A stretch of DNA of 64,000 nt from Candidatus Aminicenantes bacterium (GTDB taxonomy: Bacteria > Acidobacteriota > Aminicenantia > Aminicenantales > Saccharicenantaceae). Positions 2,865-49,252 of this stretch are shown here, piece after piece; the stretch's first letter is position 1; every line of letters starts with the position of its first letter. The notes under the pieces are model-generated. The model worked only from the letters and a program-made list of their open reading frames with translations, was not told where the DNA came from and made no database searches. The stretch lies in NCBI GenBank assembly GCA_963719985.1, contig CAVRDU010000005.1, positions 578,817-642,816 of the forward strand, given 5' to 3'. A program made the position numbers and the translations under genes.

Positions 2865-2933
2865 GGCTCAGCCTCCTCGGAAGGGATTTGATGGACGCCG
2901 GAAAGCCGTCAAAGCGGGGGGATTATATCATAC

Positions 2934-8347: not shown

Positions 8348-8422
8348 GGCCCGAATGTAGCACAAGGCGCCCGTGGTGTCACCTATGTATCTGAACCGGC
8401 CCGGGGGAACGCACTTATTCTC

Positions 8423-9874: not shown

Positions 9875-10021
9875 GGTCGTTGGCGGGCCGGGATCCCCGG
9901 CCTCATCATAACAACGCTCGGCCGGCTGCGGTTTTCTCATTCTTGCGGAGCCGGGCGTCGATACCCTAGAATAGGCCGACGGCCGGACAGTCCCGCCGTA
10001 CCACCCGTCGAGGAGGAGTCC

Positions 10022-21538: not shown

Positions 21539-22483
<945 letters not shown>

Positions 22484-22496
22484 AGAAGGAGAAGAA

Positions 22497-23774: not shown

Positions 23775-23851
23775 GACGGAAGCGCGATGCCCGCGCCGCG
23801 CGCGATTCCCCGGCGCTCCGGCGCGTGTGAAGAACTGCACCAGGAGGGCGC

Positions 23852-25170: not shown

Positions 25171-25181
25171 GGAGGGCGACC

Positions 25182-27188: not shown

Positions 27189-27192
27189 AGAG

Positions 27193-27244
27193 GGGGTCAG
27201 ATCTACCTTTTACCCATTTTTGGGTAAAAGGTAGATCTGACCCC
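27193..27244. terminator. Perfect 24-bp inverted repeat with 4-nt loop (probable bidirectional terminator/structured element)
   Basis: ggggtcagatctaccttttaccca tttt tgggtaaaaggtagatctgacccc, 5 nt after the HEAT-repeat gene stop. Comparatively AT-rich for this genome. Followed by TTCT. Confidence 0.5.
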
Positions 27245-27277
27245 TTCTGAAAGACCGCCCCATATCGGGAGGATAAC

Positions 27278-28454: not shown

Positions 28455-28510
28455 GAGCCCGGCAGGATCGCTGGATCGGGCTCGAGGGGGAACACGCAAA
28501 GGGGGTATCT

Positions 28511-29698
28511 ATGAAAAAGCGCATCATGGTCCGGCCGGCCTGCTGCGGAGCGGTGCTGATCCTCGCCGTGCTTACTGTCTCGCGCTGCCGCGGGGAGAAG
28601 ACCTACGCGGTCGAGATCAGGGACGGCGTCCGGTACGTCCATAACATCAGGCCCGCGTCCGAGAAGCCCGTGGCCGGGCTGGTCTTTGTCGGCAAGATCG
28701 GGGAGCTCGAGTCGAAAGACCCGGACCGCCAGTTCGTCCGCCCCATGAGCGCCGACGAGGACGCCGCGGGGAATCTCTTCATCCTCGACGACAAGGAGTC
28801 CTGCGTCAAGAAGTTCGGCGCCCGCAGGGAATACCTGGGCCGTTTCGGCCGGAACGGCCAGGGGCCGGGCGAATTCCAATACGCGATGAAGGTCGCGGTC
28901 AGCGCGAGCGGCCAGGTCGTCGTCTCGACGATGTCCTCGGAATTCCACGTCTTCGGGAACGACGGGACCTATGTCGACCGCTTCCGGCTCCCTCCCTACA
29001 GGGGGATCAGCCCGGTCGTCCTCGGCGCGGACCGCGTCGCCGCCTACGCCTTCCTGGTCAACGGGGAGAATGACCGGGACAATCACGTTCTGGCCATCTT
29101 CGATTTCCAGGGACAGGTCCTCCATGAATTCGGGGAGCCCTATCTTCTGGACGCGACGAGGAGGACCTGGAACGCCAATTTCCTGAGCCTGGCCGTCGAC
29201 GGGGAAGAGAACATCTACGCGGCCTTCACCTCTCTCAACCGGATCGAGAAATATTCATCGGCCGGGCGGCTGCTCCTGTCGATCGACCGGGCCCTGCCTT
29301 ATGAGATCACGCACCGTTACAAGCAATCGTCGATGGACGTCGGCGGCCGGGTCGCCCTCGTCGACGAGCCGGATTTCACGCCGGTCAGCAGCGGGATCGG
29401 CATCGACCGCAGCGGCCGCATCTGGGTGCTGAGCGTCCAGAAGGCGATCAGCCAGTCCAGCCTGCCCAAGGATTTCAGGCTCCGGGACTACGTCGCCTTC
29501 GAGATCTACGGTCCGGAGGGCGTTCTCCTGTCGCGTCTGCCCTTCCCGCCCGAGGTCGTGAAATTCGACAACATGACGATGCGCGGCGATCACGTGTTCT
29601 TCGTGGACCCGTTCGACGAAGCCTGTGTCTACGAATACGCTGTCGTCGATCGTCGAGGACTGAAGGTCCTTCATGCCCCGGCCTCGGGTATGAGATAA
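28511..29698 (+). CDS. Six-bladed beta-propeller (NHL-like) repeat protein, secreted/lipoprotein-like
   Basis: MKKRIMVRPACCGAVLILAVLTVSRC signal. Repeated FGxxGxGPGEF-type blades. Paralogous to 51623..52777. Confidence 0.5.
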   Translation: MKKRIMVRPACCGAVLILAVLTVSRCRGEKTYAVEIRDGVRYVHNIRPASEKPVAGLVFVGKIGELESKDPDRQFVRPMSADEDAAGNLFILDDKESCVKKFGARREYLGRFGRNGQGPGEFQYAMKVAVSASGQVVVSTMSSEFHVFGNDGTYVDRFRLPPYRGISPVVLGADRVAAYAFLVNGENDRDNHVLAIFDFQGQVLHEFGEPYLLDATRRTWNANFLSLAVDGEENIYAAFTSLNRIEKYSSAGRLLLSIDRALPYEITHRYKQSSMDVGGRVALVDEPDFTPVSSGIGIDRSGRIWVLSVQKAISQSSLPKDFRLRDYVAFEIYGPEGVLLSRLPFPPEVVKFDNMTMRGDHVFFVDPFDEACVYEYAVVDRRGLKVLHAPASGMR

Positions 29699-29736
29699 TG
29701 AGGCCGCCGATCAACGCTGCGACTGAGGAGGGCATC

Positions 29737-30726
29737 ATGGCCCGACCGGTAACTCTGTTCACCGGCCAGTGGGCCGACCTGCCCTTCGAGGAGATCTGCA
29801 AGAAGGCCAAGGCCTGGGGCTACGACGGCCTCGAGATCGCCTGCTGGGGCGACCACATGGACGTCCGCAAGGCCGCCGCCGACCCGGCCTACGTCCGCGA
29901 CAGGAAGCGCATCCTCAAGAAACACGGCCTCAGCTGCTGGGCCCTCGGCGCCCACCTCGCCGGCCAGTGCGTCGGCGACGAGTACGACCCGCGCCTCGAC
30001 GGCTTCGCCCCCGACGCCGTCAAGGGCAAGCCCGAGGCCCTCCGCAAGTGGGCCGTCGAGGAGATGAAGACCGCGGCCAGGGCCGCCCGGGCCATGGGCT
30101 GCTACGTCGTCAACGGCTTCATGGGCTCGCCCATCTGGAAGGCCTGGTACTCCTTCCCGCCGACGACCGAGGAGATGATCGAGGCCGCCTTCCAGAAGAT
30201 CAAGGAGCTCTGGACGCCCATCTTCGACGAGTTCGACGAGCAGGGCGTCAAGTTCGCCCTCGAGGTCCACCCGACCGAGATCGCCTTCGACTTCTACACC
30301 ACCCAGCGCCTCCTCGACACCTTCAACGGCCGCCCGACCCTCGGCTTCAACTTCGACCCGAGCCACCTCGTCTGGCAGGGCATCGAGCCGCACCTCTTCA
30401 TCCGCGACTTCGCCGACCGCGTCTACCACGTCCACATGAAGGACGTGGCCGTGACCCTCGACGGGCGGGCCGGCATCCTGGGCTCGCTCCTGCCCTTCGG
30501 CGACACGCGCCGCGGCTGGAACTTCCGCTCGCTCGGCCACGGCGACGTCGACTTCGAGGCCATCATCCGCGAGCTCAACGCCGCCGGCTACGACGGTCCG
30601 CTCTCGGTCGAGTGGGAGGACAACGCCATGGACCGCGAGTTCGGCGCGAAGGAAGCGCTCGACTTCGTCCGCACGATGAACTTCTCGCCGTCCAAGGTCG
30701 CCTTCGACAAGGACATGAAGAAATAG
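29737..30726 (+). CDS. Sugar phosphate isomerase/epimerase (xylose isomerase-like TIM barrel)
   Basis: GAGGAGGG then ATG (MARPVTLFTGQW…). Conserved TIM-barrel His/Glu/Asp blocks (EVHPTEIAF, HVHMKD). Confidence 0.8.
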   Translation: MARPVTLFTGQWADLPFEEICKKAKAWGYDGLEIACWGDHMDVRKAAADPAYVRDRKRILKKHGLSCWALGAHLAGQCVGDEYDPRLDGFAPDAVKGKPEALRKWAVEEMKTAARAARAMGCYVVNGFMGSPIWKAWYSFPPTTEEMIEAAFQKIKELWTPIFDEFDEQGVKFALEVHPTEIAFDFYTTQRLLDTFNGRPTLGFNFDPSHLVWQGIEPHLFIRDFADRVYHVHMKDVAVTLDGRAGILGSLLPFGDTRRGWNFRSLGHGDVDFEAIIRELNAAGYDGPLSVEWEDNAMDREFGAKEALDFVRTMNFSPSKVAFDKDMKK

Positions 30727-33340
30727 GTCCGACCGGCGCCTGATTCAGCGGCCGCCGCGACGGGCCGGGCTGACCACCTGGAACCGTCCGCTCGAGCCGC
30801 CGGCCCTCCTCGTCCACGAGGACGATCCGGTGCGCGCCGGGCTCGGGGTTCAGGGCGATCTGGTGGAAGATCCGGGTCGACGCCACATAATCCTCGTCGA
30901 GATGCCAGTGGATGGTCGCCCCGCTCTCCCGGTGGACGGCCTCGAAGATGACCTCCCCCGCCCGGCCGTCGAGCCCGACCGGGACGTACACGGACATGTC
31001 GGGCTCGGGGTAGACGAGGCTCATCACCCGCGACCCGCGCTCGCCCGCCGGCCCGCCGCCGCAATCGGACCGGAACGGGGGCAGGGGCCGGTATTCGGGA
31101 TGTTCGGCCCGGTAGTAGTATTCCTGGATGGGCGGCAGGACGAACCACGCCTCGTGCCGCATGCGGTCGACCGGCTCGCAGCGGCTGTCGACCCGGAACC
31201 GGCCCGTGGCGTCGAGATGGACCGTCTGATGGAACGAGCACATCCGGTCGAAGCGGCTCTCCTCGGGGACCAGCACCGTCTCGGCCGGGCAGAGCTCCGT
31301 CGCCAGGAATCCCGAGTCCCGGCAGACCTTGATCTCCTTCAGCCCCGACCACGGCCGCTCGATCCGCCCGCCGCCGTCGACCGCGCCGATGAGGTCGAAC
31401 AGGACCGGGGCCGCGGCCGCGAGCCCGGTCAGGCCGGGCTTGCCCTCGCCGTCGGCGTTGCCGGCCCAGACGCCGATCGTGTAGTTCGGCATGACCCCGA
31501 TCGCCCAGGCGTCCCTCAAGCCGAAGCTCGTCCCGGTCTTCCAGGCCAGCCACTTCGAGGAGCTGAAGTTCCGCCAGAAGCCCTCCTCGTCGGGCCGGTT
31601 GACCGCGGTCAGGGCCTGGAGCGTCAGATAGGCGGCCGCCGCGCCGAGGTCCTTCATCTTCGACGGCGCCTCCCTCTCGTCCCGGAGAAGCCGGACCTCG
31701 CGTCCTCCTCCCGGCGCGCCCGACGCGAGCTGGGCCAGCTTGGCGTAGAGTGCGGCGACCTCGGAGAGCCGGCCCTCCGCCCCTCCCAGCACCAGGGTCA
31801 GGCCGTAGTCCTCCGGCGAGCGGTCGAGGGTCGTCATCCCCCACCGCCTCAGCCGGTGCTCGAACCGGGGGATGCCGTACTCGCGGAGCTCGCGCACGGC
31901 CGGGACGTTGAGCGACCAGGCCAGGGCCGTCCGGGCCGGGACGGCGCCGCGGAACCGCCGGTCGAAGTTCTCGGGCTTGAACCCCTCGAAGCGGACGGGC
32001 GTGTCGGCGACGAGCGTCACCGGCGTGAACCCGCCCTCCCGGACCATGGCGGCGTAGAGGAACGGCTTGAGGATGCTGCCCGTGCTCCTCCGGCTCCGGA
32101 GGATGTCGACGCTCTGGCCGAACTCCCCGCTCCGCTCGAGCCCGGCGTTCCCGACGTAGGCGACGACGGCCGCCCGGCGGTTGTCGATGACGACGGCGGC
32201 GACGTTCCGGATGTCCCGGCCGACGAGCCGCCGGCCGTGATCCTCGACGATCCTCCTCACGCTCCGCTGCAGGTCGGCGGCGACGAACGACCGGAACGGG
32301 GAAGCGGCGCCCCCGCGCGCCGCCAGGGTGTCGAGCAGATGAGGCGCCTCCCGGGGCACGGGCCGCGTCCCCCCCGGCATGGGCTCGGCCAGGGCCAGAC
32401 GGCACTCGAGCTCCGGCAGGACGCCCCTCGCCCGCAGCCGCTCGAGGAGACCGTCGCGCTTCCAAAGGAGGCGCGCCCGCCCCGCCGCGGACGCGAGGAG
32501 CCCCGGGTCGTTGGGCAGGACGGCCAGGTAGGCCGCTTCGGCCCAGCTCAGCTGTTCCGGGCTCCGGCCGAAGTACATCCACGACGCGGCGTCGAGGCCG
32601 ACGACGTTGCCGCCGAACGGGGCATGGGCGGCGAACAGGGCCAGGATCTCCTTCTTCGACCGCCCCGCTTCGAGCCTCAAGGCCAGGACCGCCTCCCGGG
32701 CCTTTTCGGCGTAGGTCCGCCTCCGGTTCTTGCGGGCCAGCCGCACGACCTGCATGGTGATCGTGCTCGCGCCGCTCTCGACCCTCCCGGAGCGCAAGTT
32801 CTGGCCGACCGCCCGGGCCACGGCCAGCGGATCGACGCCTGGGTGGATATAGAAGCGGCGGTCCTCGAAGCCGACCAGGACACGATAGAACCTCTCCGGG
32901 ACGCGCTCGCCCGCCGGGAACCGCCATTGACCGTCCGCGGCCGGCCGGGCCCCGAGAAGCTCGCCCTCGGCGCTGAAGAGCACGGGCGAGACGGGATCGT
33001 CGAAGCGGACGACGGGCAGGGCGAAGAAGAGGCCGAGGAGAAGAAGCGTCGCAATGCCAAAAGAGAAGAAGACGCGGCGCTTTGAAAAGGCTCTTCCGAT
33101 TCCGGAAATTTCCTCTCTCCGGCTTGGCTCGGGATATGCCTCTAGCTCCCCGGCCCCCCGGGAACCAGTCGTCCGGTTCCCCCCAGAGGGCCCCCCCTCC
33201 ACGGACGGGGATCTTCGAGGCATCATCCCTAGCCGCCGCGTGAGGATTCCCGGCAAAGGGAGAAGAACCCTTAAAAGGGGGACATGGACCCTTGGTGCGT
33301 GTCCCCGTTCGTTACCGGCCCGCCCCGTCTCTGACATCAT
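30575..33340 (-). CDS. pbpC: Penicillin-binding protein 1C (glycosyltransferase/transpeptidase)
   Basis: GT51 motifs (FEDRRFYIHPGVDP, GASTITMQ, RKxxE) and a transpeptidase domain. The start is ambiguous (ATGATG at 33340, 7 nt after the A2M stop, or ATGATG at 33226). The C-terminal ~50 aa and a 150 nt overlap with the convergent gene suggest a frameshift; an alternative frame ends …FQVVSPARRGGR near 30745. Confidence 0.75.
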   Translation of the reverse strand: MMSETGRAGNERGHAPRVHVPLLRVLLPLPGILTRRLGMMPRRSPSVEGGPSGGNRTTGSRGAGELEAYPEPSRREEISGIGRAFSKRRVFFSFGIATLLLLGLFFALPVVRFDDPVSPVLFSAEGELLGARPAADGQWRFPAGERVPERFYRVLVGFEDRRFYIHPGVDPLAVARAVGQNLRSGRVESGASTITMQVVRLARKNRRRTYAEKAREAVLALRLEAGRSKKEILALFAAHAPFGGNVVGLDAASWMYFGRSPEQLSWAEAAYLAVLPNDPGLLASAAGRARLLWKRDGLLERLRARGVLPELECRLALAEPMPGGTRPVPREAPHLLDTLAARGGAASPFRSFVAADLQRSVRRIVEDHGRRLVGRDIRNVAAVVIDNRRAAVVAYVGNAGLERSGEFGQSVDILRSRRSTGSILKPFLYAAMVREGGFTPVTLVADTPVRFEGFKPENFDRRFRGAVPARTALAWSLNVPAVRELREYGIPRFEHRLRRWGMTTLDRSPEDYGLTLVLGGAEGRLSEVAALYAKLAQLASGAPGGGREVRLLRDEREAPSKMKDLGAAAAYLTLQALTAVNRPDEEGFWRNFSSSKWLAWKTGTSFGLRDAWAIGVMPNYTIGVWAGNADGEGKPGLTGLAAAAPVLFDLIGAVDGGGRIERPWSGLKEIKVCRDSGFLATELCPAETVLVPEESRFDRMCSFHQTVHLDATGRFRVDSRCEPVDRMRHEAWFVLPPIQEYYYRAEHPEYRPLPPFRSDCGGGPAGERGSRVMSLVYPEPDMSVYVPVGLDGRAGEVIFEAVHRESGATIHWHLDEDYVASTRIFHQIALNPEPGAHRIVLVDEEGRRLERTVPGGQPGPSRRPLNQAPVGPISSCPCRRRPWTARSSSCGRSRALPSRRTRGPWRCPPTRPRADRRSRRR

Positions 33341-33347
33341 TCCTCGC

Positions 33348-36300
33348 TCAGACCCGTCTTAAAGAGGGACATCCCCTGCCGGGACAGTCCCATCGGACGA
33401 TCTCGATCCACTGTCCTTTCGTGTTGGCGTGCACGCTCGCGTCGTACATGGCCTCGACGGCGACGCCCGGCAGGTAATAGCGGCCGCGGTAGGACGCGTT
33501 CATGACGACGAGGAAGACCTTCTCCTGCCCCTTGTCCAGCCCGAAATAGTTGAAGACGCGGTCGTCGCGGATGTCCTGGTAGTCGACGTCGGCGGCCGCC
33601 CCGCTCTCGCCGCCGAACCTCGGGTTCTTGATCTGGAAGCCGGCGGCCACGAGGTGGGTCAGGACGAGGTTCCGCAGCTTCGCCGATCCCAGGTTCATGA
33701 CCCGGACCTCGGCCACGAGATCGAGCCCCTGCGTGATCTTGTCCATCGCCAGCGGGTTCATCTTCATGTCGCGATAGCGGACGTCGACCGAGAGGCCCTC
33801 GGACGACCCGGTCTCCGCCCCGGCCGGGGGCAGGCCCCGGCGATACACGCTGACGTAGAGCGTCAAGCCCCCGGTGTTCGTGACCGTGAGCTTGCGTCCT
33901 TGGGCCGGGAACGCAGGGAACTCGCGCCGGTCGATTGGCTTCGTCGCCTCGACGTCGACGGGCTTGTCGCCGTCCCAGGCGAAGCGGTAGCCGAAGGGCC
34001 TGACCTCGGCGCTGCCGTAGTAGGAGGACAGGGCCATCAGGCCGAACGACGTCTCCTGGGTCGAGAACCAGAGGTCCGAGGCCATGGCCTTGGAGATATC
34101 CTCGAGGAGCGGCCGGGCCTTGTCGGACCGCCCGATCAGAACGAACGCCCTCACGGCCAGGGCCTTGTCGCGGAAGTCGGAGCCGAAGGTCACGCCGTCG
34201 TCGCGGTAGGCCTTGAAGTCGGGCCGGGCGCGATCGGCCAGGTCGGCCGCAGCGTCGGCCTGACCGGTCATGTGGAAGGCCGCGGCGAGCGTCAGGCCGG
34301 CGAGTCCGGGGAGTCCGGGCGTCTCCCGGAGCCGGTTCATCGCCCCCAGGTCGGGGTCGCGAGCCAGAGCCAGGCCGAACAGGCGGAAGGCCTGGGTGAG
34401 CTCGGCCGCGTCGCCGCCCGTGACGTAATTGTTGGCCAGCGTTCTCTGGCTGGCCCGCCAGCCGTCGAGCATGGCCTGCGGCACGTGATAGCCGAGGCGC
34501 TGGGCCTCGAGCAGGAAATAGCCGGCGTAGGCCGTCGTCCACTCGTGTCCCGCAAAACCTCCGGGCCAGTAGGAGAAGGCGCCGTTGGCCATTTGGAAGC
34601 CGGCCATCTTCTGGATGGCCGCCTTGACGTGCTCCTCTATCCGCCGGGTTTGCCGCTCGTCGAGCCGGACCAGGTCCCTGAGGTAGAGCTGGGGCATGGC
34701 CGCGGACAGGGTCTGCTCCAGGCAGCCGTGGGGGAAATGGATGAGGTAGTCGAGCCTCTTCTCGAGGCCGAGGGGAGGCAGGGAGGAGGCCTCCAGCGTG
34801 ATCTGGTTCGTCCCCTCCAGCCCGAAGGGAACGACTTGCTCGCTTTGAGTCCGCCCCGGCGCGACCTCGAGCCGCGTCGTCTGGGTCACGACGGCGTTGG
34901 AGGCCAGGACGGGGATGGAGATGGCGTCCTCGACGCGCGCGGACCCGCCCGCCGCGCGGAACCGGACCTCGCCCTGTCCCAGAGCCCCTGTCGTCCGGAG
35001 CGCGAACGAGACGATGTCGTCGCCGGGCCGGGCAAACGCGACCGTCTTCGTCCGTTCGCCGACGACCTCGAGAAGCGCGTTCGTCTCGACGCTCACCGCG
35101 ACCTCCTTCAGCGCCGGGTCGGTGACGAACACGGCGATGGGCATGACCACGTCCTCGCCGGGCCGGACGACCCGCGGCAGGGTGGCCAGCGTCATCAGGT
35201 CGCGCCGGACCGGGACGGACTTCTCGGCCGATCCGAACGCGCCGCCGCGGCCGGCCACGACCATGACCCGGACGGCGCCGAAGTACTGCGGCATGAGGAG
35301 ATCGTGGACGCCGCTCGCGCCCGCCTTGAGCTCGAACGGCCCCTCGAACAGGACGACCGGCGGGAACCGCCGCGGCTTTTTGGCCAGGTCGGCCGACCCG
35401 GCGCCCTCGTCGCCGCCGATCGAGAGGATGCGGGCCATCTCGGCCCCGTAGGCCTCGGCGACGATGTCGAAGAGGTCCCAGGTCGCGACGCCGAGCGCCT
35501 CGCGGGCGTAGAAGCCCTGGCGCAGATCGGGCGTCGCGTACCGGGTCAGGCCGAGGAGCCCCTCGTCGACGACGGCCAGCGTATAGGTCATGGGCCGGCC
35601 GCCGCCCTCGCGGACCTCGACCCGGAACTTTTCCTTGGGCCGGATCTCGTCGGCCACCTTGAGCGCGGGCTCGAGGCGCGTCCCCCGGTCCTCGACGAGG
35701 AGGGGGATGGCCCCGTAGAGCCGGATCGGCGCGTCGCTCGTCTTGTCTCGGTGCGGCTGGATCAGGGTGACGTGGACGTAGACGTTGGGCGTCATGGCCG
35801 CGGTGACCGGGATCTCGAAGCGGTTCTCGCCCTTGACCGTGGACACCCACATCTTGTCGAGGACCGAGGTCCCGTTCTCGATGGAGACGAGGGCCCGGCC
35901 CTGGACGGCTTCGGGCAGGTAGATGACGGCCCGCTCGCCGACCGTGTAGCCGGGCTTGTCCGAGGTCAGAGTGAGCACGGTCGCGCCCGGCCCCGCCTCC
36001 TCGCGGGCCCGGCCGGCCCAGCCGGGCCAGTCGATGTAGACGATCCGGCCCGCGGCGTGGCCGCTCTCGGGGTCCTCGACCCGGACGAGATAGCGCCCCC
36101 AATCGGGGTAGCGGACCTGGAACGTCCACTTGCCGGCGCCGTCCTTCGTCGCGACCTCGCCCGTGAGCAGCGGCCGGTTCCGGACGTCGGAGACGTACTG
36201 GGCCAGCGATTCCCCGCTCTTGTCCCACCACCACTTCCACTCGACCTTGTAGAGAGAGACGAGGACCTTGTCCCGGGAGACGGGCCGGCCCGAGGGATCG

Positions 36301-38912
36301 ACGGTGGCGATCGCGACCTCGTGGTCCTTGTCGGTCAGGAGCATCCCCCGGACCGCGTCGCCCTTGGGCGCCTTCAGCCCGACGTAGGCGTCGTAGGGAT
36401 GGAAGGGCAGCGAGAAGGTGTCGACGCTGAAGTCGCCGCTGGCCTCGAAGACCCGGCTGGTGAACGCGGCGTCGAGAAGGCCCGGGCTCGCCTGCGGCGG
36501 GTCGATCTCGATCCGGGCCGTGCCCCGGCCTTGGGCGTCGAGGACCCCCTTGGCCACGTCGAGCGTCCCGCCCTCGAAATCGCGGGCCGGATCGTCGAAG
36601 ACGAAGTCCTGGAAGTGGTCGAACCGCGTCGGCCGGCGCGAGAGCCGGACCGAGACGTCGAAGGCCAGGTCGGCCGCCGGGGCCCCGTGGAGCCACTGGG
36701 CCGTGACCGCGGCGTCGAACGGCATGTCCTTGCGGGCCAGCGTCTCGCGGCCCGGGTCGAGCAGGATCTTGAGCCGGTTGGGTACGACGGTCTCGACCTT
36801 GATGGTCCTGCTGAAGGTCATGCCGCCGACGAGGACGCGGGCCTGCCAGTTGCCCGTGGGCGCCGACTCGTCCGTGGCGGCGACGAAGGCGTGGAAGGGC
36901 TCGACCGACCGTTCCGGCTTGAGCGTCCGGACGAGCTGGCCCTGGGGCGAGTAGAGCTCCAGGACGACCGGGTGGCCCGCCGGCAGGACCTTCTCCCGGT
37001 CGAACAGGGCGAAGGTCAGATAGAGGGTGTCGCCCGGCCGCCAGACGCCGCGCTCGCCGTAGAGGATGCCCTTGACGCCCTTCTCCGTCGTCTCGCCGCC
37101 GACGTCGAAGTGGCTCATCGGCAGGACGCCCTCGCCCGCGATCCGGAGATAGCCGGTGTCGCCACCGCCCTCCGCCGAGACGTAGAACGGACGGTCCTTG
37201 AGGCCGAGGAAGGCGAAGCCGTTGCCGTCGCTCGTCGTCTCGCCGAGGAGCTGGTTCTGGTAGTTGAAGGCCCGGACCCGGAGCCCGGAGAGCGGCCGGG
37301 CCGTCCCGAGGTCAGTCGTCACGACGTGGAGCCCGCCGTTGGCCTCGAGCTTGGCCACGAGGCCGATATCGGAGGCCAGGAAGTTCCGGCCGGCGACGGC
37401 CGCCCGGTTGTAGCGGGGCATGTAATAGGCGTCGGAGCAGGGGTTGTCGCGGTTGTACCAGTCCCGGCCGTCATAGGCATAGGACTCCTCGGCGTAGTCC
37501 CAGTTCGAATAGCGGTCGTAGCCCGCGTCGTCAAGGTTCCTGAGCGGCGCTTCGGCGACGACTGGCTTGTCGCTCGCCGGGCAGGGGTAGGTCGAGTTGC
37601 CGCGGTTGAACGACAGGACGATGCGGAAGAGGCTGCCCGGGCTCTCCCGGAAGAGCCGCGTGACGTCGAGCTCGTAGCGCGACCAGCGACCGGTCTGGGC
37701 CGGGTCGTCGGAGAGGGGGACCGTCCTGCGCCAGAGGTAGCGCCCGACCCGGGCCAGCTCGTCCGAGCCCTCGAGGCTGTTGACCTGGAAGAACTGGGCC
37801 ATGTTGCCCGGATAGATCTGGAAGGCCGCGACCTGGAGGGACCTGAGGTTGACGGCCTCGATAGGCACGGTCAGGCGGTCCTTGCGCGGCAGGATGAGGC
37901 CCCGGCCGACGAACCGCGCCGCGGGCCGGATCGACTCGAACGTGGCCTGGCGGCTCAAGCCTTCTTTGAGGCGGCGGTTGAAGGCGTTCCGGACGCCGGG
38001 CATGACTTGGACGGTGACGGTGCCGACGAACTCTTTGGTCGAATAGGCCCGGACGGCGTTTCCTTCGACCTCGAACGTCAGGGGCATGGTCCCGACCCGG
38101 ATGAGGCCCTGGAGGCTCTGGTCCCGGGCCAGGGGATCGGAAAAGCGCAACAGGACGTGCCGCGTCTCCCCGAGAACGGGCTCCACGGAGACGAGGGCGA
38201 ATTCTCCCAGGGCCGGGACCTCGACCTCGCGGCGCCCGCGCGCGTCGACGCGGAGCGGAGCGCCGTCCCACGAGAGGACGACCATAGAGGGCTCCTCTCC
38301 CCGCTCGACGTCCTTGACCGAGAAATAATGTGTCAGCCCATCCTGGGCGTGGCTCCATTCGATCGTGAGCGATCGGCCGCCCTGCCCGGCCTCGAGCACC
38401 TTTTCGACAAGGGTCTTCTCCTCCATGTCGGCCGTGACGACCCGGCCCCGAAGGACCTGGACCTGCGGCCGGCCCGCGTCCTCGGCGAAGAGGCCTTCCA
38501 AGCCGACCTCCATGTTCGGCCGGACGACGTCGAAGCCGAACTCGAAGCGGGCGAAGGCCTTCGGTAGGTCGAGGGCCTTGCCGACGTGCAGGACCGCCCT
38601 GTAGTTCTGGCCCGGCTTCAGCTCGCCCTTGGGCGTGAAGACGAGCTCGCGCGCGCTCTTCCACTCCGCGGTCCCGGCGATCGCGGGCGAGAACTCGAGG
38701 AGGCCGGCCGCGGCCGGGCCCGGGGCCCCGACGCTCGGCACGAACAGGACGCGGATGGGCGACCCGCGGAAGACCGTCCCCGTCGTGAACGCGCTGATGT
38801 ACCGGTACCATTCCTTCTCGGCGCCCGCCGGCTCCGGTTCTTTCGACTTGCAGGCGGCGAACGCGAGAACCCCAAGGACGATCAGGAGGCCGGACACGGT
38901 TCTCTTCGTCAT
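33348..38912 (-). CDS. Alpha-2-macroglobulin family lipoprotein (YfhM-like) with thioester motif
   Basis: 1854 aa. Lipoprotein signal (LAFAAC). Thioester CLEQ motif (FPHGCLEQT). Classic operon partner of pbpC. Confidence 0.85.
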   Translation of the reverse strand: MTKRTVSGLLIVLGVLAFAACKSKEPEPAGAEKEWYRYISAFTTGTVFRGSPIRVLFVPSVGAPGPAAAGLLEFSPAIAGTAEWKSARELVFTPKGELKPGQNYRAVLHVGKALDLPKAFARFEFGFDVVRPNMEVGLEGLFAEDAGRPQVQVLRGRVVTADMEEKTLVEKVLEAGQGGRSLTIEWSHAQDGLTHYFSVKDVERGEEPSMVVLSWDGAPLRVDARGRREVEVPALGEFALVSVEPVLGETRHVLLRFSDPLARDQSLQGLIRVGTMPLTFEVEGNAVRAYSTKEFVGTVTVQVMPGVRNAFNRRLKEGLSRQATFESIRPAARFVGRGLILPRKDRLTVPIEAVNLRSLQVAAFQIYPGNMAQFFQVNSLEGSDELARVGRYLWRRTVPLSDDPAQTGRWSRYELDVTRLFRESPGSLFRIVLSFNRGNSTYPCPASDKPVVAEAPLRNLDDAGYDRYSNWDYAEESYAYDGRDWYNRDNPCSDAYYMPRYNRAAVAGRNFLASDIGLVAKLEANGGLHVVTTDLGTARPLSGLRVRAFNYQNQLLGETTSDGNGFAFLGLKDRPFYVSAEGGGDTGYLRIAGEGVLPMSHFDVGGETTEKGVKGILYGERGVWRPGDTLYLTFALFDREKVLPAGHPVVLELYSPQGQLVRTLKPERSVEPFHAFVAATDESAPTGNWQARVLVGGMTFSRTIKVETVVPNRLKILLDPGRETLARKDMPFDAAVTAQWLHGAPAADLAFDVSVRLSRRPTRFDHFQDFVFDDPARDFEGGTLDVAKGVLDAQGRGTARIEIDPPQASPGLLDAAFTSRVFEASGDFSVDTFSLPFHPYDAYVGLKAPKGDAVRGMLLTDKDHEVAIATVDPSGRPVSRDKVLVSLYKVEWKWWWDKSGESLAQYVSDVRNRPLLTGEVATKDGAGKWTFQVRYPDWGRYLVRVEDPESGHAAGRIVYIDWPGWAGRAREEAGPGATVLTLTSDKPGYTVGERAVIYLPEAVQGRALVSIENGTSVLDKMWVSTVKGENRFEIPVTAAMTPNVYVHVTLIQPHRDKTSDAPIRLYGAIPLLVEDRGTRLEPALKVADEIRPKEKFRVEVREGGGRPMTYTLAVVDEGLLGLTRYATPDLRQGFYAREALGVATWDLFDIVAEAYGAEMARILSIGGDEGAGSADLAKKPRRFPPVVLFEGPFELKAGASGVHDLLMPQYFGAVRVMVVAGRGGAFGSAEKSVPVRRDLMTLATLPRVVRPGEDVVMPIAVFVTDPALKEVAVSVETNALLEVVGERTKTVAFARPGDDIVSFALRTTGALGQGEVRFRAAGGSARVEDAISIPVLASNAVVTQTTRLEVAPGRTQSEQVVPFGLEGTNQITLEASSLPPLGLEKRLDYLIHFPHGCLEQTLSAAMPQLYLRDLVRLDERQTRRIEEHVKAAIQKMAGFQMANGAFSYWPGGFAGHEWTTAYAGYFLLEAQRLGYHVPQAMLDGWRASQRTLANNYVTGGDAAELTQAFRLFGLALARDPDLGAMNRLRETPGLPGLAGLTLAAAFHMTGQADAAADLADRARPDFKAYRDDGVTFGSDFRDKALAVRAFVLIGRSDKARPLLEDISKAMASDLWFSTQETSFGLMALSSYYGSAEVRPFGYRFAWDGDKPVDVEATKPIDRREFPAFPAQGRKLTVTNTGGLTLYVSVYRRGLPPAGAETGSSEGLSVDVRYRDMKMNPLAMDKITQGLDLVAEVRVMNLGSAKLRNLVLTHLVAAGFQIKNPRFGGESGAAADVDYQDIRDDRVFNYFGLDKGQEKVFLVVMNASYRGRYYLPGVAVEAMYDASVHANTKGQWIEIVRWDCPGRGCPSLRRV

Positions 38913-42356: not shown

Positions 42357-43726
42357 ATGGGCATCACGGTCAAGAAAGCGGCGGGACGGATCAGCCGCCG
42401 CGATTTCCTCAGGTCCTCGGCCGCGGCCGGGCTCGGCGTCGCACTGTCCGGGCCGGTCTTGTCCCAGGACCCGCCCCCGGCGGCGCCCGCCGCCGCCAAG
42501 TCCGCCGACGAGCTCCGCGTGGCCGTCATCGGCTGCGGCGCCCAGGGCCGTGTCCTCGTCGAGTCGATGCTGCGCGTCCCTTCCGTCCGCATCGTCGCCA
42601 TCGCCGACATCTGGTCCTACAGCCGCCAGTACACCGGCAACTACCTCAAGAAATACGGCCACGTCGCCAACGTCTACGAGGACTTCCGCGAGCTGCTCGC
42701 CGCCGAGAAGGACCTCGACGCGGCGGTCGTGGCGACGCCCGACTGGGTCCACGCCGAGCAGACCAACGCCTGTCTCCGGCGGGGGCTCCACGTCTACTGC
42801 GAGAAGGAGATGTCCAACTCGCTCGACCAGGCCCGGTCCATGGTCCTCACGGCCCGCGAGACGGGCAAGCTCCTTCAGATCGGCCACCAGCGCCGATCCA
42901 ACCCGCGCTACATCCACGCCATCGACCGGCTCATCCGCGAGCGCAACCTCCTCGGCCGCGTCACCGTCGCCTACGCCCAGTGGAACCGGGCCAAGGCCGA
43001 CCTGCTCGGCTGGCCGGAGAGGTACGCCATCGATCAGGCCACCCTCGACAAGCACGGCTACGGCTCCATGACCGAATTCCGCAACTGGCGCCTCTTCAAG
43101 AAGTTCGGCGGCGGCCCGATGGTCGACCTGGGCTCCCACCAGATCGACCTCTTCGGCTGGGTCCACGGGACACCCCCAAGTCGGTCGTGGCCAGCGGCGG
43201 CCTGGACTTCTACAAGGACTGGGAGTGGTACGACAACGTCATGGCCGTCTACGAGTTCGAGACCAAGGCGGGCACGGCCCGGGCCTTCTATCAGGTCCAG
43301 ACGACGACCCAGCACGGCGGCTTCTATGAGACGTTCATGGGCGAGAACGGCTCGCTCGTCCTGTCCGAGATCCCCCAGCGGGGCAACTGGGCCATGCGCG
43401 AGCCGCACGCCCCCGAATGGGACTCCCTGGCCAAGGCGGGCCTCCTCCAGTCCGAGACCGTGCCCATCCAGAAGTCGGCGACCAAGAACATCTATGTCGA
43501 CGTCCGGGTGACGGCCGAAGCGGGACGCTGGCCCCTGCCGGTGGAGCTGGCCAAGCCGGCCCACCAGCCCCATCTCGAGAACTTCTTCGACGCCGTCAGG
43601 AACAGGGCCCTGCTCAATTGCCCGGCCGAGCTGGCCTACGAGTCCTGCGTCGCCGTCCTCAAGACCAACGAGGCGGTCAAGGCCCGGAGGGTCCTGGAGT
43701 TCCGCCCGGAGCAGTTCAAGGCATGA
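42357..43726 (+). CDS. TAT-exported Gfo/Idh/MocA family oxidoreductase, one frameshift (~43168)
   Basis: SRRDFLRSSAAAGLGVAL TAT signal and VIGCGAQGR Rossmann. The C-terminal domain continues in the frame of 42299 (…KSVVASGGLDFYKDWEWYDN…EFRPEQFKA stop). Confidence 0.7.
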
Positions 43727-46080
43727 TCGGCGCCGGACGGACCTCCATCGGCGGGCTCGCGGGGGCGCTCCTCTTCGCCCTCGCCCTCTCCGCTTCCGCC
43801 CCGGCCCAGACGTCGGCGCCGGCCGCCTCCCCGGACAAGCACCTCGTCTGGAACGGCGACCGGACGGTGCCCGTCCATCTCATCCCGCTCCGCGACGAGA
43901 ACGACGAGCTCATCGTCCCGACCGAGACGAACCCCCTCCCCTACTCCGCCCGCTTCACCTGCGGGCCGTGCCACGACTACGGGACGATCGCGGCGGGCTG
44001 GCACTTCGGGGCGATGACCGCGGCGGCGAGCGGGCGCCCCGGCGAGCCCTGGATCCGGTCCGACCCGAAGACCGGGACCGTCCTCCCTCTCTCTTACCGG
44101 AGATGGGACGGGACCTACGATCCGCGGGCCCTAGGTCTGAGCGCCTGGGACTTCACCCTGCTCTTCGGCCGCCACCTCGCCGGCGGCGGCCCGGCCGCCC
44201 CCCCGGAAGAAGAGACCCTGGCCCACCCCGAGGCGCGCTGGAGCGTTTCGGGCAAGGCCGAGATCAACTGCCTGGCCTGCCACAGCCGGTCGGGGCGCCA
44301 GGACCACTCCGAGTGGGCCAAGCAGGTCCTCCGCGAGAACCTCCGCTGGGCGGCCACGGCGGCCGGCGGCGTCGGCGAGGTCGGCGGCATGGCCTCGCGG
44401 CTCAAGGAGACGTGGGACATCGTCGACGGGCCCAACCTCGACGACCACGAGTGGGCCGTCGCTCCCTTCGTCAAGTACAGGACCGTCGACTTCGACTCCA
44501 AGCACCGCTTTTTCTTCGACCTCGACCACCGGCCCCCGGACGACCGCTGCCTGGCCTGCCACTCGGTCTCGGCCAAGGACGCGGCCCAATGGAGCGCCGA
44601 CGCCGACGTCCACTCGGCGGCCGGCCTGAAGTGCGCCGACTGCCACCGCAACGACCTCGGCCACGCCATGGTCCGGGGCTACGAGGGCGAGGCGGCCGAG
44701 ACCGGCGACCGGGCCGCGGAGGCGTTCACCTGCCGCGGCTGTCACCTGGGGGAGAACGCCGAGGGCAAGAGGACGGTCGTCCCCGGCCGCCTCGGCGCGC
44801 CCTATCCCAGGCACGTCGGCGTCCCGCTCGTCCACTTCAAGCGGCTTTCATGCACCGTCTGCCACTCCGGGCCGAAGCCGCGGGACGGCTTCACAAGGGT
44901 CAGGACGTCGCGGGCCAACCGGCTCGGCATCTACGGCGTCGCGACCTGGTCGACGGACGCGCCCGCGGTGTTCGAGCCGGTCTACAAGAAGGACTCCGCC
45001 CATCGCATCGCCCCGCACCGGCTGGTCTGGCCGGCCTTCTGGGCCAGGAAAACGGGCCCGACCATGACGCCGCTCCTGCCCGAGGTCGTCGAGGCCGCCG
45101 CGGGCGAGGTCCTCGGGCCCGAGGAGAGGATCTCGCTCGTCCTCGCCGCGCTGGGCCAGGTCATGGCTGAGGATGAAACGCCCGTGCTCGCTATCGGCAA
45201 GTTCGTCTTCGCGCCGAACGTCGACGGCGGCCTCGACGCGGCGACCGAAGCCGGCGCCTCCGCGGACCGCGCCGCGTTTTGGGGCATCCGCGAGGGCGGC
45301 GAGATCCGGCCTCTCGTTCCCGATTTCGATCCGGCGGCGGAAGTCAAGGACCCGGACATCGAGACGCGCTTTCAGGAGTTCCTCCAGGCCCTCGGGACGG
45401 TCGCCGGGCGCCCCGGCGAACCCGCGATCGTGGTCCGGAAGACGCTCTACCGTTTCGCCGGGGGTTACCTCGACATCGCCGAGGCGCCGGAGGAGCTAGC
45501 GGGGGCCGCCGGCCCGGGCTGGCTCGCGCGAGGAAAGCTCCTGCCCCTGGCCGCGGACTTCGACCTGCGCACCGTCGCCGCCAAGGCCGGGACGGAGCGG
45601 ACGCTGACCGAGGAGCAGGTCGGGCTCGTCCTCGAGGCGCTGGCCGCGACCGCCGGCGACGCCGAGATCGTCTACATCTCCGGCGGCCGGATGTTCCGGC
45701 GGACGAAAGAGGGAACCCTCGCCGCCGATAAGCACCCGGCCGCGGCTCCGGCGGCCTGGCCGCTGGCCCACGACGTCCGGCCGGCCCAGCAGTCGCTCGG
45801 CTGGAAGGGCTGCACGGACTGCCACAGCGGCGGCTCGAACTTCTTCTTCGCCGGGCTCGAGGGCCAGGGCCCCCTGCTGACGAAGAAGGTCGGCAAGCTC
45901 TCCGCCGCGTCGTTCATGGGTCTCGGCGGGCTCTTCCAGCGCTTCTTCGGCCTCTCGTTCGTCGTCCGGCCGGCGTTCAAGGTCGTCCTGGCCGTCTGCG
46001 CGATCGTCGCCGGGTCCCTTCTCTTCCTGGCCGGGCTCTTCGCCCTCGGCCGGGTGGCCGGGTTCCTGGAGAAGAGGTAA
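43723..46080 (+). CDS. Multiheme (7x CxxCH) c-type cytochrome with signal peptide and C-terminal transmembrane anchor
   Basis: Motifs CGPCH, CLACH (x2), CADCH, CRGCH, CTVCH, CTDCH. The ATG overlaps the upstream Gfo/Idh/MocA stop (ATGA). C-terminal hydrophobic helix VVLAVCAIVAGSLLFLAGLFALG. Confidence 0.75.
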   Translation: MIGAGRTSIGGLAGALLFALALSASAPAQTSAPAASPDKHLVWNGDRTVPVHLIPLRDENDELIVPTETNPLPYSARFTCGPCHDYGTIAAGWHFGAMTAAASGRPGEPWIRSDPKTGTVLPLSYRRWDGTYDPRALGLSAWDFTLLFGRHLAGGGPAAPPEEETLAHPEARWSVSGKAEINCLACHSRSGRQDHSEWAKQVLRENLRWAATAAGGVGEVGGMASRLKETWDIVDGPNLDDHEWAVAPFVKYRTVDFDSKHRFFFDLDHRPPDDRCLACHSVSAKDAAQWSADADVHSAAGLKCADCHRNDLGHAMVRGYEGEAAETGDRAAEAFTCRGCHLGENAEGKRTVVPGRLGAPYPRHVGVPLVHFKRLSCTVCHSGPKPRDGFTRVRTSRANRLGIYGVATWSTDAPAVFEPVYKKDSAHRIAPHRLVWPAFWARKTGPTMTPLLPEVVEAAAGEVLGPEERISLVLAALGQVMAEDETPVLAIGKFVFAPNVDGGLDAATEAGASADRAAFWGIREGGEIRPLVPDFDPAAEVKDPDIETRFQEFLQALGTVAGRPGEPAIVVRKTLYRFAGGYLDIAEAPEELAGAAGPGWLARGKLLPLAADFDLRTVAAKAGTERTLTEEQVGLVLEALAATAGDAEIVYISGGRMFRRTKEGTLAADKHPAAAPAAWPLAHDVRPAQQSLGWKGCTDCHSGGSNFFFAGLEGQGPLLTKKVGKLSAASFMGLGGLFQRFFGLSFVVRPAFKVVLAVCAIVAGSLLFLAGLFALGRVAGFLEKR

Positions 46081-46084
46081 GGCC

Positions 46085-46819
46085 ATGCTGTTCACGCTCC
46101 TCACGGTCCTCGTTCTCGGCGGGACGTATCTCGGCCTGGCCTTCCACCGCTTTTGGACGACCCGCGAGGAGGCCCGGTCGACCATCCTCTATGCCGAGAT
46201 CCTCAAGAAGTTCCTGGCCTGGCTCGCCCTCCGGACGATCCAGATCGGCCGCGGGGCCACGACCACGTCGTCGTGGGAATTCCTCATGGCCCTGCCGCTC
46301 TGGAAAAAGCCCGTTCTGGATAGATGGCTCCTGATCGCGCTCTACGGAAGCTTTCTCTATCTCGCCGCGAGCGGCTTTGTCTTCGCCGTCTTCGTCCCCC
46401 GCGGTCTCTACGGCTTTCCGCTCATCGGGCACGTCATGGCCGGCGGCCTGTTCGCCGTCTCCCTGACCGCCCTGGTCCTCTTCAAAGGCCGCGATTTCAT
46501 CTCCGCGCCGAAGCCGGCTCCCCTTAGCCTGACGCTCCTCGATCTTCGGAAGATGGGCATCACGGCGGCCCGGGTCAAGCTCTGGTCCTTCTGGCTCTTT
46601 GCCGCGGCCGGGACCCTGCTCATCCTGTCGGCCCTCCTGCCCATGCTGCCTCTTCTGCGAACGGCGGGGCAGAGGCTCGTTTTCGAGCTCCATCGCTACG
46701 GCGCGCTCCTCTCGGCCGCGGCCGCGATGGTCTTCGCCGGCCTCACGCTTTTCGAGCCCGACCAGGCCTATCGTTCCCGGCCGCGCGAGGGGGACGCTCC
46801 CGCGCCGCCCTCGGCGTAG
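46085..46819 (+). CDS. Small polytopic membrane protein (possible b-type haem membrane anchor, DUF4405-like)
   Basis: 244 aa with about 4 TM helices and conserved His residues. Starts 5 nt after the cytochrome gene. Confidence 0.45.
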   Translation: MLFTLLTVLVLGGTYLGLAFHRFWTTREEARSTILYAEILKKFLAWLALRTIQIGRGATTTSSWEFLMALPLWKKPVLDRWLLIALYGSFLYLAASGFVFAVFVPRGLYGFPLIGHVMAGGLFAVSLTALVLFKGRDFISAPKPAPLSLTLLDLRKMGITAARVKLWSFWLFAAAGTLLILSALLPMLPLLRTAGQRLVFELHRYGALLSAAAAMVFAGLTLFEPDQAYRSRPREGDAPAPPSA

Positions 46820-47913: not shown

Positions 47914-49252
47914 TTATTTCGTCCGCGGAGAGGGCTCGCGCCTGCCGTCGTCGTAGAGGCCGACGAGCTCGACGGCCCGGCCGTCCTTGACCGTGAACTC
48001 GATCCGGAAGTAGTCGAGGCCCTCGACGGCGAACAGCGTGGCGGACATCGGGACGAGCCGGTATTTCGGCCCCGTGCGCTGGTAGTGGAGGGCGCCGTTC
48101 TCCACCGTGACCTTGCGCTCGCCGTAGACGCCGGCGTAGCTCTTCAGTGTCGCCTCATCGAGGCGCCGCGGGACCTTCTTGGCCCTCTCTGCGGCCAGGA
48201 TCCACTCGTATTCGGCCTTCCGGGCGGGATCGGTCGCCTTGGCGGCCAGCTTCTCGACGGCCATCGCGTAGGCCCGGTCGAACGCCTCGGCGGCGGGGAC
48301 GTCGATATCGGGCGAGACGCCCGTGCCTTCCCAGTTCGTCTTGGAGTAGGGGTTGATGGCCCGGGCGAAGGGGACCCGGAGGACGAAGTCGCGCTGGACG
48401 ATCCTCGTCGCCGTCGGGTGCGCGCCGCCGCCGGTCGTCTCGCCGATGACGGTCGCCCGCTTGAGGTTCTTCATGTTGTAGGTGAATTCCTCGGCCCCCG
48501 AGAAGGTCCGCGAGCTCGTCAGGATGTAGAGGTCGGCGCCGGAGGCCCGGGGCCCGGGGACGTAGGGCAGGGTCCAATAGTGCTCGGTCCGATCCGCGGC
48601 CCGGGCGTAGAGGTCGTTGAGGTGGACCGGCTCGTCGAAGAAATAGGTGCTGATGAGCTGGATCTGGGCCGGGTCGCCGCCGCCGTTCTGGCGCAGGTCG
48701 ACGATGACGGCGTCGCAGTGGGCCAGGAAGCTCATCGCGGCGATGGCCGTCGGCCCGGCCTGGTCGGGCGAGGCGAACATGCGGAAGTCGATGTAGCCGA
48801 CGTTCCCCGCGAGGCGCTCGACCTTGCGGAAGCCGAAGTTGTTCCGCCGGGCCTCGAGGTCCCGGCGCGCGCGGACCTTGGCCGCCTCCTCCTCGCTCTG
48901 GCCCTGGAGACGCCTCATGTCCTCGGCCAGGGCCGGATTGTAGGCGAAGCCGATGTGCCCGTCCTTGCTGACCATGGAGAGGACCGTCGAAACGGCCTGG
49001 GCGAAGGCCGGGGCGGTAGCGGCCTTGTCGAAGCTCCCGCTCTTGAGCTGAGCGCGCAGGGCCTCCTCCATCTTCTTGGCCGTGTCGGCGAAGACGTATT
49101 CCCTGTTGAGGAGCGCCGAGACTTCGTCGACGATGGCCTGCTTGCCTCGCGGCGTCGAGGGCCGGCGCCGCCGCCTCCTGGGCGAATACGGTCCCGGCCC
49201 CGAAGGCCAGAATGGCGATGACGATGACGGTATCGCGGAGCGTCTTGGACAT
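47914..49252 (-). CDS. S41 family peptidase (C-terminal processing/tail-specific protease-like), one frameshift near the signal peptide (~49190)
   Basis: Signal peptide MSKTLRDTVIVIAILAFGAGTVFAQEAAAP in the frame of 49252. The rest is in the frame of 49071, with S41 blocks (ILTSSRTFSGAEEFTYNMKNL, GETTGGG). Confidence 0.7.

Follow-up and report, generated by a model that had tools for sequence, protein, structure and literature searches.

Three consecutive genes on the forward strand of contig CAVRDU010000005.1 from a Candidatus Aminicenantes bacterium (assembly GCA_963719985.1) encode a dehydrogenase of the Gfo/Idh/MocA type (DH), a seven-haem c-type cytochrome (CYT) and a small membrane protein (MEM). 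On balance, these proteins probably form a single membrane-anchored periplasmic complex, in which a sugar would be oxidised by DH, DH would be re-oxidised by CYT and the electrons would be passed through MEM to the quinone pool. The stretch of DNA analysed, positions 578,817 to 642,816 of the contig, is 64,000 nucleotides (nt) long and is referred to as the window. Its G+C content is about 68%, and the nearest homologues of CYT carry the name Candidatus Aminicenantes. In window coordinates the three genes are:

42357..43726, + strand: DH, dehydrogenase exported by twin-arginine translocation (TAT), Gfo/Idh/MocA type, 456 amino acids (aa) once repaired, split by a 1-nt frameshift (Pfam and NCBIfam matches, orthologues)
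43723..46080, + strand: CYT, 785-aa heptahaem c-type cytochrome with a signal peptide, a non-haem beta-rich domain of about 300 aa and a C-terminal transmembrane (TM) anchor
46085..46819, + strand: MEM, 244-aa five-helix membrane protein, remote relative of the FdnI/HyaC-type cytochromes b

The start of DH at 42357 has GAGAGGAG 5' of it. The stop codon of DH (43724-43726) overlaps the start of CYT as ATGA, read as GCATGATC, just as the first-pass annotation of this DNA had described. That annotation also placed MEM 5 nt after CYT; the measured gap between the CYT stop codon (TAA, 46078-46080) and the ATG of MEM at 46085 is 4 nt (GGCC). In the window the unit is flanked upstream by argininosuccinate-pathway genes and downstream by a convergent gene for an MscS-type channel. 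Promoter and terminator scans gave nothing above chance.

The conservation of the arrangement was assessed by scanning one genome per species with a CYT profile, which gave relatives in 322 species, and the best 80 loci were taken. Loci were assessed only where at least 1.5 kilobases (kb) of upstream sequence (for DH) or at least 0.9 kb of downstream sequence (for MEM) was present, and as a reciprocal test independent metagenome contigs were seeded with a DH profile. DH lay directly upstream of CYT on the same strand in 70 of 70 CYT-seeded loci, and MEM adjoined CYT downstream, or was fused to it, in 74 of 74. Among the DH-seeded metagenome loci with room for the next genes, CYT was directly downstream in 63 of 66 and MEM followed CYT in 45 of 49. 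Wherever upstream DNA was present, CYT was accompanied by DH. One of the three exceptions among the 66 had only 724 nt of downstream sequence with nothing clear in it; the other two are weighed below. The loci are from Aminicenantes and Saccharicenans, Verrucomicrobia and Planctomycetes, with additional contigs from Kiritimatiellae and from a metagenome-assembled genome (MAG) labelled Gammaproteobacteria, and the unit holds across at least four phyla while the flanking genes vary. Synteny had been named beforehand as the observation on which the idea of a three-gene unit could fail, and the three genes were found to be kept together from both directions of search. Across the CYT-seeded loci DH is the more conserved partner (51-90% identity, vs 40-82% for CYT).

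In planctomycetes, proteins of 880-1000 aa merge CYT with the four-helix core of MEM. A confident AlphaFold2 model of one such fusion was obtained, with a pLDDT of 87 and a pTM of 0.82. Judged from the sequences, a fusion of CYT and MEM is classic evidence of a shared function.

The assignment of DH begins with its N-terminus:

42357..42464, + strand: twin-arginine signal peptide of DH, SRRDFLRSSAAAGLG... (PF10518, TIGR01409; RRxF invariant in orthologues)

Residues 12-30 match the TAT models PF10518 (24.5 bits, cut-off 22.7) and TIGR01409 (22.5 bits, cut-off 16.7). They are followed by an N-terminal Rossmann domain (PF01408, E = 7e-19, 69 bits against a cut-off of 24) and a C-terminal GFO_IDH_MocA domain (E = 4e-12), in which PF22725 scored 46.8 bits and PF02894 41.5 bits, both above their cut-offs. 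The first-pass reading of this protein as a TAT-exported Gfo/Idh/MocA dehydrogenase is thus borne out by curated models for the signal and for both domains. The conserved motifs are GxGxxG (IGCGAQG), YCEKEMSNS, IGHQRRSNPRY and GGGPxVDLGSHQID, of which YCEKEM and VDLGSHQID are invariant; the catalytic-type motif is EKE, not EKP, and neither the cofactor motif nor the catalytic motifs vary between phyla. DH is 79-90% identical to the intact 460-462-aa orthologues of close relatives.

The top NCBIfam model for DH was the BT_2158 glycoside 3-dehydrogenase (NF058561), which covered residues 13-264 only and scored 86.4 bits. Because this is far under the equivalog cut-off of 750, DH belongs to another subfamily than the BT_2158 type. 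The nearest solved relatives in a profile search of the PDB were 1,5-anhydro-D-fructose reductase, the C-glycoside 3-oxidoreductase DgpA, periplasmic aldose-aldose oxidoreductase, GFOR, glycoside 3-dehydrogenases and a sugar 3-ketoreductase. These matches were distant (E = 1e-16 to 1e-7) and mostly confined to the Rossmann domain. By its profile scores, DH is a divergent Gfo/Idh/MocA subfamily.

CYT has two hydrophobic segments, a signal-like one at residues 8-26 and a C-terminal peak at residues 754-772 followed by a basic tail. Seven CxxCH motifs start at residues 80, 183, 276, 304, 337, 377 and 697 and contain 14 of the 15 cysteines; a long stretch without a haem motif separates motifs 6 and 7. 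The signal peptide, the seven motifs and the C-terminal anchor claimed by the first-pass annotation were all recovered from the sequence and its hydropathy. They are located as follows.

43960..43974, + strand: CxxCH 1, CGPCH, residue 80, conserved
44269..44283, + strand: CxxCH 2, CLACH, residue 183, invariant
44548..44562, + strand: CxxCH 3, CLACH, residue 276, invariant
44632..44646, + strand: CxxCH 4, CADCH, residue 304, invariant
44731..44745, + strand: CxxCH 5, CRGCH, residue 337, invariant
44851..44865, + strand: CxxCH 6, CTVCH, residue 377, invariant
45811..45825, + strand: CxxCH 7, CTDCH, residue 697, membrane-proximal, about 50 residues ahead of the TM anchor, invariant
45964..46050, + strand: C-terminal TM anchor of CYT (hydropathy peak; long helix in the AlphaFold2 model of a fused homologue)

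Each of the seven motifs is invariant or almost so across 135 CYT homologues, down to about 41% identity, so the CxxCH pattern is not a matter of chance. In the same homologues, six invariant and two nearly invariant histidines lie outside the motifs. They would be enough for bis-histidine ligation of every haem, which fits electron-transfer haems and not a catalytic haem.

Several known families were considered for CYT. The c3/c7 models PF14537 and PF14522 scored 30-31 bits, just over their cut-offs of about 25, but span residues 293-384 only, a region with three haem motifs, and are uninformative on the remaining 700 residues. An enzyme of the NrfA, ONR or HAO type was rejected: there is no CxxCK motif, the NrfB model gave 26.7 bits against 166.6 and the octahaem model 15.8 against 375. 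MtrC and the c3 family were likewise rejected or uninformative in the curated libraries, the PDB profile search and Foldseek. The CYT family profile found no relative in the PDB, its best match being a stretch of NrfA at E = 0.19, and a Foldseek search of the PDB with a 961-aa CYT-MEM fusion model returned generic helical bundles only (E > 0.3). The possibility, raised at the outset, that CYT is a member of a known family such as NrfA or ONR acting on its own was therefore not sustained, and CYT, as far as profile and fold comparison can tell, is in no curated family and has no solved relative. A separate observation is an enlarged CYT homologue of 1108 aa (locus L088, positions 7001-10327) with 11 CxxCH motifs rather than seven.

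MEM has five TM helices, both by hydropathy and in an AlphaFold2 model (pLDDT 81), in which the core helices 77-103, 110-138, 161-187 and 193-222 form a four-helix bundle preceded by one more TM helix at the N-terminus. By itself, the window protein matched no Pfam or NCBIfam model. The top three Foldseek matches of the model were the cytochrome b of E. coli hydrogenase-1 (HyaC; probability 0.94-0.99), the sole PDB match of the MEM family profile was FdnI of formate dehydrogenase-N (E = 0.056), and PF01292 matched 11 of 14 family members, all under the gathering cut-off of 30.1 bits (best E = 6e-6; 11-23 bits when the members were scored one by one). An hhalign comparison with FdnI/HyaC (E = 0.016) aligned His116 of MEM to His57 of FdnI, a ligand of the periplasm-side haem b. 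Two histidine codons are of interest:

46430..46432, + strand: codon of MEM His116, at the periplasmic end of core helix 2, aligned with FdnI His57
46691..46693, + strand: codon of the invariant MEM His203, HRYS motif, at the periplasmic end of core helix 4

His116 was present in 59 of 59 MEM orthologues. The RYS motif of helix 4 is common to MEM and FdnI; His203 of MEM stands one residue before it, and H155 of FdnI six residues after its start. MEM has no counterparts of FdnI H18 or H169, and the histidines of the cytoplasm-side haem are absent. Weak signals that converge suggest that MEM is a reduced, remote relative of the FdnI/HyaC subunits and not a member of their family, and, to judge by the conserved histidines, it would have at most one periplasm-side haem or quinone site. 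Since only periplasm-side histidines were kept, a transmembrane redox loop that generates a proton-motive force is unlikely. The first-pass annotation had called MEM a b-type subunit; Foldseek, the FdnI profile and PF01292 concur in that direction, while the scores stay below threshold and only one of four haem ligands is kept. In the MAG labelled Gammaproteobacteria, MEM is replaced after CYT by a 239-aa PF01292 cytochrome b of the canonical, histidine-rich kind (L086, positions 2728-3447), which is followed by a Gfo gene and a HEAT-repeat gene.

The genes around the unit in its relatives bear on the substrate. In distant relatives, accessory sugar modules adjoin DH-CYT-MEM directly upstream, and the neighbours include TAT-type Gfo enzymes, HEAT-repeat proteins, xylose-isomerase-like TIM barrels (AP_endonuc_2), ThuA, DUF6807 and 3-keto-disaccharide hydrolases. 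This context probably points to the oxidation of sugars or glycosides to keto-sugars.

The proposed mechanism can be set out in the following order. DH would fold in the cytoplasm around its nicotinamide cofactor before export by the TAT pathway; tight binding of that cofactor is to be expected in the periplasm, where there is no pool of NAD(P) (PMC8121099). CYT would be exported by Sec, supplied with seven c-type haems and tethered by its C-terminal helix, which may pack on the four-helix core of MEM. In the periplasm, DH would oxidise a sugar or glycoside, with a keto-sugar as the most likely product. The reducing equivalents would run along the haem c wire to the membrane-proximal haem 7 and from there, by way of a haem b or quinone site on the periplasmic side of MEM, into the quinone pool. 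A flavin may convert hydride into one-electron steps, a possibility that arises because most distant relatives encode an ApbE without a leader right behind MEM. The sequences show the domain identities, the export signals, the conservation of the haem motifs, the near-invariable linkage, the CYT-MEM fusion and the remote kinship of MEM with cytochromes b; we infer that a complex forms, which way electrons flow, that the substrate is a sugar, that MEM binds haem b and how hydride is converted to single electrons.

Several observations weigh against this proposal. NAD(P)H gives up a hydride, while haems take single electrons. With a hydride donor and no flavin domain or motif, the first electron-transfer step has no visible catalyst, and this is the weakest step of the scheme. 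No flavin-binding domain was visible in DH, CYT, MEM or their neighbours, and no conserved [S/T]GA[S/T] column was found in the DH, CYT, MEM, F5/8-type-C (F5/8C), PMT_2, HEAT or AP_endonuc_2 families; the called proteins of three further loci likewise lacked the motif. The sequences YISGG in CYT and TTTQHGG in DH were considered as flavinylation sites and do not fit the motif. As for MEM, every similarity to cytochromes b is under the curated thresholds, just one of the four canonical haem b histidines of FdnI (H18, H57, H155 and H169) is kept, namely H57, the second invariant histidine is about two helical turns off the FdnI position, and His116 gives way to arginine in one of the three fused proteins. 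Two divergent DH homologues (about 52% identity) occur without CYT, MEM or ApbE, so that a dehydrogenase of this type can exist without the cytochrome; both (L163 and L165) are directly followed by an F5/8-type-C gene, with PMT_2 seen next in L165 only. Finally, DH is frameshifted in this genome, as are two of its paralogues, and the system may be inactive here.

Three other accounts of the unit were weighed. Flow in the opposite direction through the same complex, with quinol oxidised at MEM, electrons led outward via CYT and DH working as a periplasmic keto-sugar reductase, has some appeal in that 1,5-anhydro-D-fructose reductase and sugar 3-ketoreductase are among the nearest solved relatives of DH and the architecture does not fix the direction. 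It is nevertheless highly improbable. With menaquinol at about -75 mV and NAD(P)+ at about -320 mV, established redox chemistry makes such a transfer uphill, and MEM gives no sign of a transmembrane two-haem path able to use the membrane potential, because only its periplasm-side histidines are conserved. The 3-keto-disaccharide hydrolase, ThuA and AP_endonuc_2 neighbours, moreover, belong to oxidative 3-keto pathways. It is also unlikely that the genes are co-located yet functionally separate, CYT-MEM being a quinol dehydrogenase or electron conduit of general use, comparable to CymA/NrfH or CbcL, for other acceptors in the periplasm or outside the cell, and DH relying on a keto-sugar co-substrate to recycle its bound cofactor, which is the model proposed for GFOR and BT2158. 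Adjacency in 70 of 70 and 63 of 66 loci, with overlapping stop and start codons, in four phyla and with other flanks changing, is hard to square with separate functions, and CYT always has DH beside it where upstream DNA is present. What speaks for this account is that the published models of TAT-exported Gfo enzymes require no protein acceptor (PMC8121099; doi 10.1101/2024.03.25.586180), that two DH homologues lack CYT and that no flavin mediator is visible.

The last account gives the unit a role in the envelope: DH would oxidise a sugar on a polyprenyl-linked or envelope glycoconjugate handled by PMT_2, GT2 and F5/8C, and CYT-MEM would serve only for electron disposal. F5/8C and PMT_2 genes do follow the unit in most distant relatives, GT2 follows it in L039 and L088, F5/8C stays beside DH where CYT, MEM and ApbE are absent, with PMT_2 in one such locus, and GT2 and GT39 genes were also reported from the Alistipes fosmid that bears the AL Gfo cluster (doi 10.1101/2024.03.25.586180). 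Against this, the window and its close relatives keep DH-CYT-MEM with no F5/8C or PMT_2 nearby, and the upstream modules are typical catabolic 3-keto-sugar genes. We regard an envelope role as improbable and retain sugar oxidation by a DH-CYT-MEM complex that feeds the quinone pool as the preferred reading.

The state of the unit in this particular genome is a separate question, which turns on the break in DH:

43172..43176, + strand: DH frameshift site, a run of five C that is one C short in comparison with orthologues

Frame 0 of DH ends ...FGWVHGTPP and then turns to nonsense, while the next frame goes on with KSVVASGGLDFYK... as far as the stop at 43724-43726. With one C added, the run reads WVHGTPPKSVVASGG, where the intact 460-462-aa orthologues read WVHGAPPRSVVASGG, so a single missing C explains the frame break. 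A frameshift had been placed at 43168 in the first-pass annotation; it is real in the sequence and lies within about 5 nt of that position. DH thus lacks an intact reading frame here, while its orthologues are intact. There are four frameshifts in the window, in three Gfo/Idh/MocA genes: one in DH, two in the gene called Gfo3 (23849..25167, at about 24419 and 24903) and one in that called DH2 (27278..28451, at about 27833). No frameshift was found in about 19 kb of neighbouring non-Gfo genes that could be compared with relatives, and four shifts within one gene family are unexpected if errors are random. The four sites share no common sequence motif, and no database record was found for the exact truncated DH product of 384 aa. 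A lone short-read contig with an identical cytochrome begins downstream of the DH shift.

It is conceivable, with a probability that falls well short of even, that the unit in this genome is a decaying remnant whose dehydrogenases are pseudogenes. This would be compatible with any of the readings above, and its probability is not to be added to theirs. The confinement of the four frameshifts to the three Gfo/Idh/MocA genes, with none in the checkable neighbours, favours decay. Assembly error is favoured instead by several observations: 1) the DH shift falls in a homopolymer, 2) the frames are otherwise preserved, 79-92% identical to intact orthologues and free of stop codons or deletions, 3) broken copies of the same gene are found in other large-contig MAG loci (MFD isolate names), and 4) the identical cytochrome is encoded on a contig of 1.7 Mb, which suggests an indel-prone long-read assembly.

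Upstream of the unit, the window contains an accessory sugar cluster, made up of the same modules that adjoin DH-CYT-MEM in distant relatives:

22344..30726, + strand: accessory sugar cluster as a whole
22344..23774, + strand: TAT-type Gfo
23849..25167, + strand: Gfo3, with two frameshifts
25209..27185, + strand: HEAT-repeat protein
27278..28451, + strand: DH2, with one frameshift, then a beta-propeller protein
29698..30726, + strand: AP_endonuc_2 TIM barrel

Between this cluster and DH-CYT-MEM sits a gene for a bacterial alpha-2-macroglobulin of 1854 aa (33348..38912, - strand) adjoining one for a PBP1C-type penicillin-binding protein (30578..33340, - strand) with Transgly, Transpeptidase and BiPBP_C domains; alpha-2-macroglobulin and PBP1C-type genes are a known pairing. 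On the other side, the start of a peptidase S41 gene (47914..49071, - strand) may lie farther upstream (49072..49252), homology to relatives reaching 49143. The signal-peptide-like open reading frame that starts at 49252 is in another frame than the peptidase, and another frameshift or an alternative start codon is possible.

In distant relatives the conserved unit extends beyond three genes, and further genes were seen downstream of it. ApbE comes directly after MEM in most distant relatives (L039, positions 8900-9796; L069, 8804-9868; L084, 8844-9809; L087, 9999-10874; L088, 10944-11981) and is absent from the window; none of these ApbE proteins has a signal peptide, so they are apparently cytoplasmic, and they have no visible substrate. 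A small secreted F5/8-type-C protein was seen after the unit, or after DH itself, across phyla (L039, 9818-12790; L069, 9879-12307; L088, 12122-15966; L163, 2240-2896; L165, 5334-7596), usually accompanied by a PMT_2 (GT39-like) membrane glycosyltransferase and sometimes by GT2. In a Kiritimatiellae contig, genes for a UbiA-family prenyltransferase and a polyprenyl synthase lie directly after ApbE (L087, 10852-12735), which hints at a link with quinone or haem O/A synthesis.

Periplasmic Gfo/Idh/MocA dehydrogenases start a recently recognised and widespread oxidative route of glycoside breakdown. The unit described here, which was found in no fewer than 322 species-level genomes from Aminicenantes and from bacteria of the Planctomycetes-Verrucomicrobia-Chlamydiae (PVC) group, is a concrete candidate for the recycling of trapped NAD(P). 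Its candidate haem wire and membrane subunit would make periplasmic sugar oxidation an input of electrons to respiration, and the metabolism of Aminicenantes, usually called fermentative, might then be read differently. The analysis also sets apart a large family of multihaem cytochromes that has no structural relative and reveals a reduced form of the FdnI/HyaC subunit. Going further, we tentatively suggest, at somewhat less than even likelihood, that the unit represents an undescribed class of respiratory sugar dehydrogenase, in which a TAT-exported nicotinamide enzyme is re-oxidised by its own novel-fold heptahaem cytochrome and linked to quinone through a single-site FdnI-like subunit. If so, this would naturally explain how the cofactor of the periplasmic Gfo-type glycoside 3-dehydrogenases is regenerated, and it would imply a hydride-to-haem converter, possibly a flavin placed before TAT export by the leaderless ApbE at a site without a known motif. 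No published description of the unit was found in a literature search that left most subscription papers outside it, which makes this a weak negative.

Among known systems, DH itself resembles GFOR of Zymomonas, the aldose-aldose oxidoreductase of Caulobacter and the BT2158 and AL3 enzymes of Bacteroides and Alistipes in its TAT signal, its GxGxxG, EK(P/E) and DxxxH motifs and its sugar-pathway context. It differs from them in that the similarity is low and in that its subfamily is locked to a multihaem cytochrome gene. The known TAT-exported Gfo enzymes are thought to recycle their cofactor via a second sugar, for which an unidentified co-substrate has been proposed (PMC8121099). The acceptor that re-oxidises the TAT-exported Gfo glycoside 3-dehydrogenases was stated to be unknown in the same paper, and cytochromes have been raised as re-oxidants only as a possibility (doi 10.1101/2024.03.25.586180). 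In LacABC/glucoside 3-dehydrogenase and the FAD (flavin adenine dinucleotide) and PQQ (pyrroloquinoline quinone) dehydrogenases of acetic acid bacteria, periplasmic sugar oxidation, including that to 3-keto-glycosides, is likewise coupled by a dedicated c-type cytochrome to the respiratory chain (PMC8121099, PMC9007349). The cofactors of those enzymes release single electrons, whereas DH is of the nicotinamide type, and CYT is distinguished by seven haems, an unmatched fold, a TM anchor of its own and a separate cytochrome-b-like subunit.

The planctomycete CYT-MEM fusions share their layout, a multihaem c domain followed by a membrane cytochrome-b-like part, with the CbcL-type modules of Geobacter, in which a periplasmic multihaem c domain is joined to a HydC/FdnI-type cytochrome b. 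In proteins of the CbcL type, quinol oxidation serves extracellular electron transfer and there is no tie to a dehydrogenase gene; no sequence relationship of CYT to them was detected in the curated libraries. The overall plan is that of FdnGHI and HyaABC, the formate dehydrogenase-N and [NiFe] hydrogenase-1 of E. coli, with a TAT-exported catalytic subunit, an electron-transfer subunit with one C-terminal TM helix and a four-helix, quinone-linked cytochrome b. Here, however, the catalytic head is a nicotinamide-type Gfo/Idh/MocA protein in place of a Mo or NiFe enzyme, the wire consists of seven c-type haems on a Sec-exported protein in place of Fe-S clusters, and of the histidines MEM retains only those on the periplasmic side. 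Complexes in which a periplasmic dehydrogenase supplies the quinone pool by way of a cytochrome subunit are a kind already known. Three features appear, by comparison with the curated libraries, the PDB and the searchable literature, to be new: a catalytic subunit of the Gfo/Idh/MocA type in a complex of this kind, a heptahaem subunit that has no structural relative and a stripped-down FdnI-like partner.

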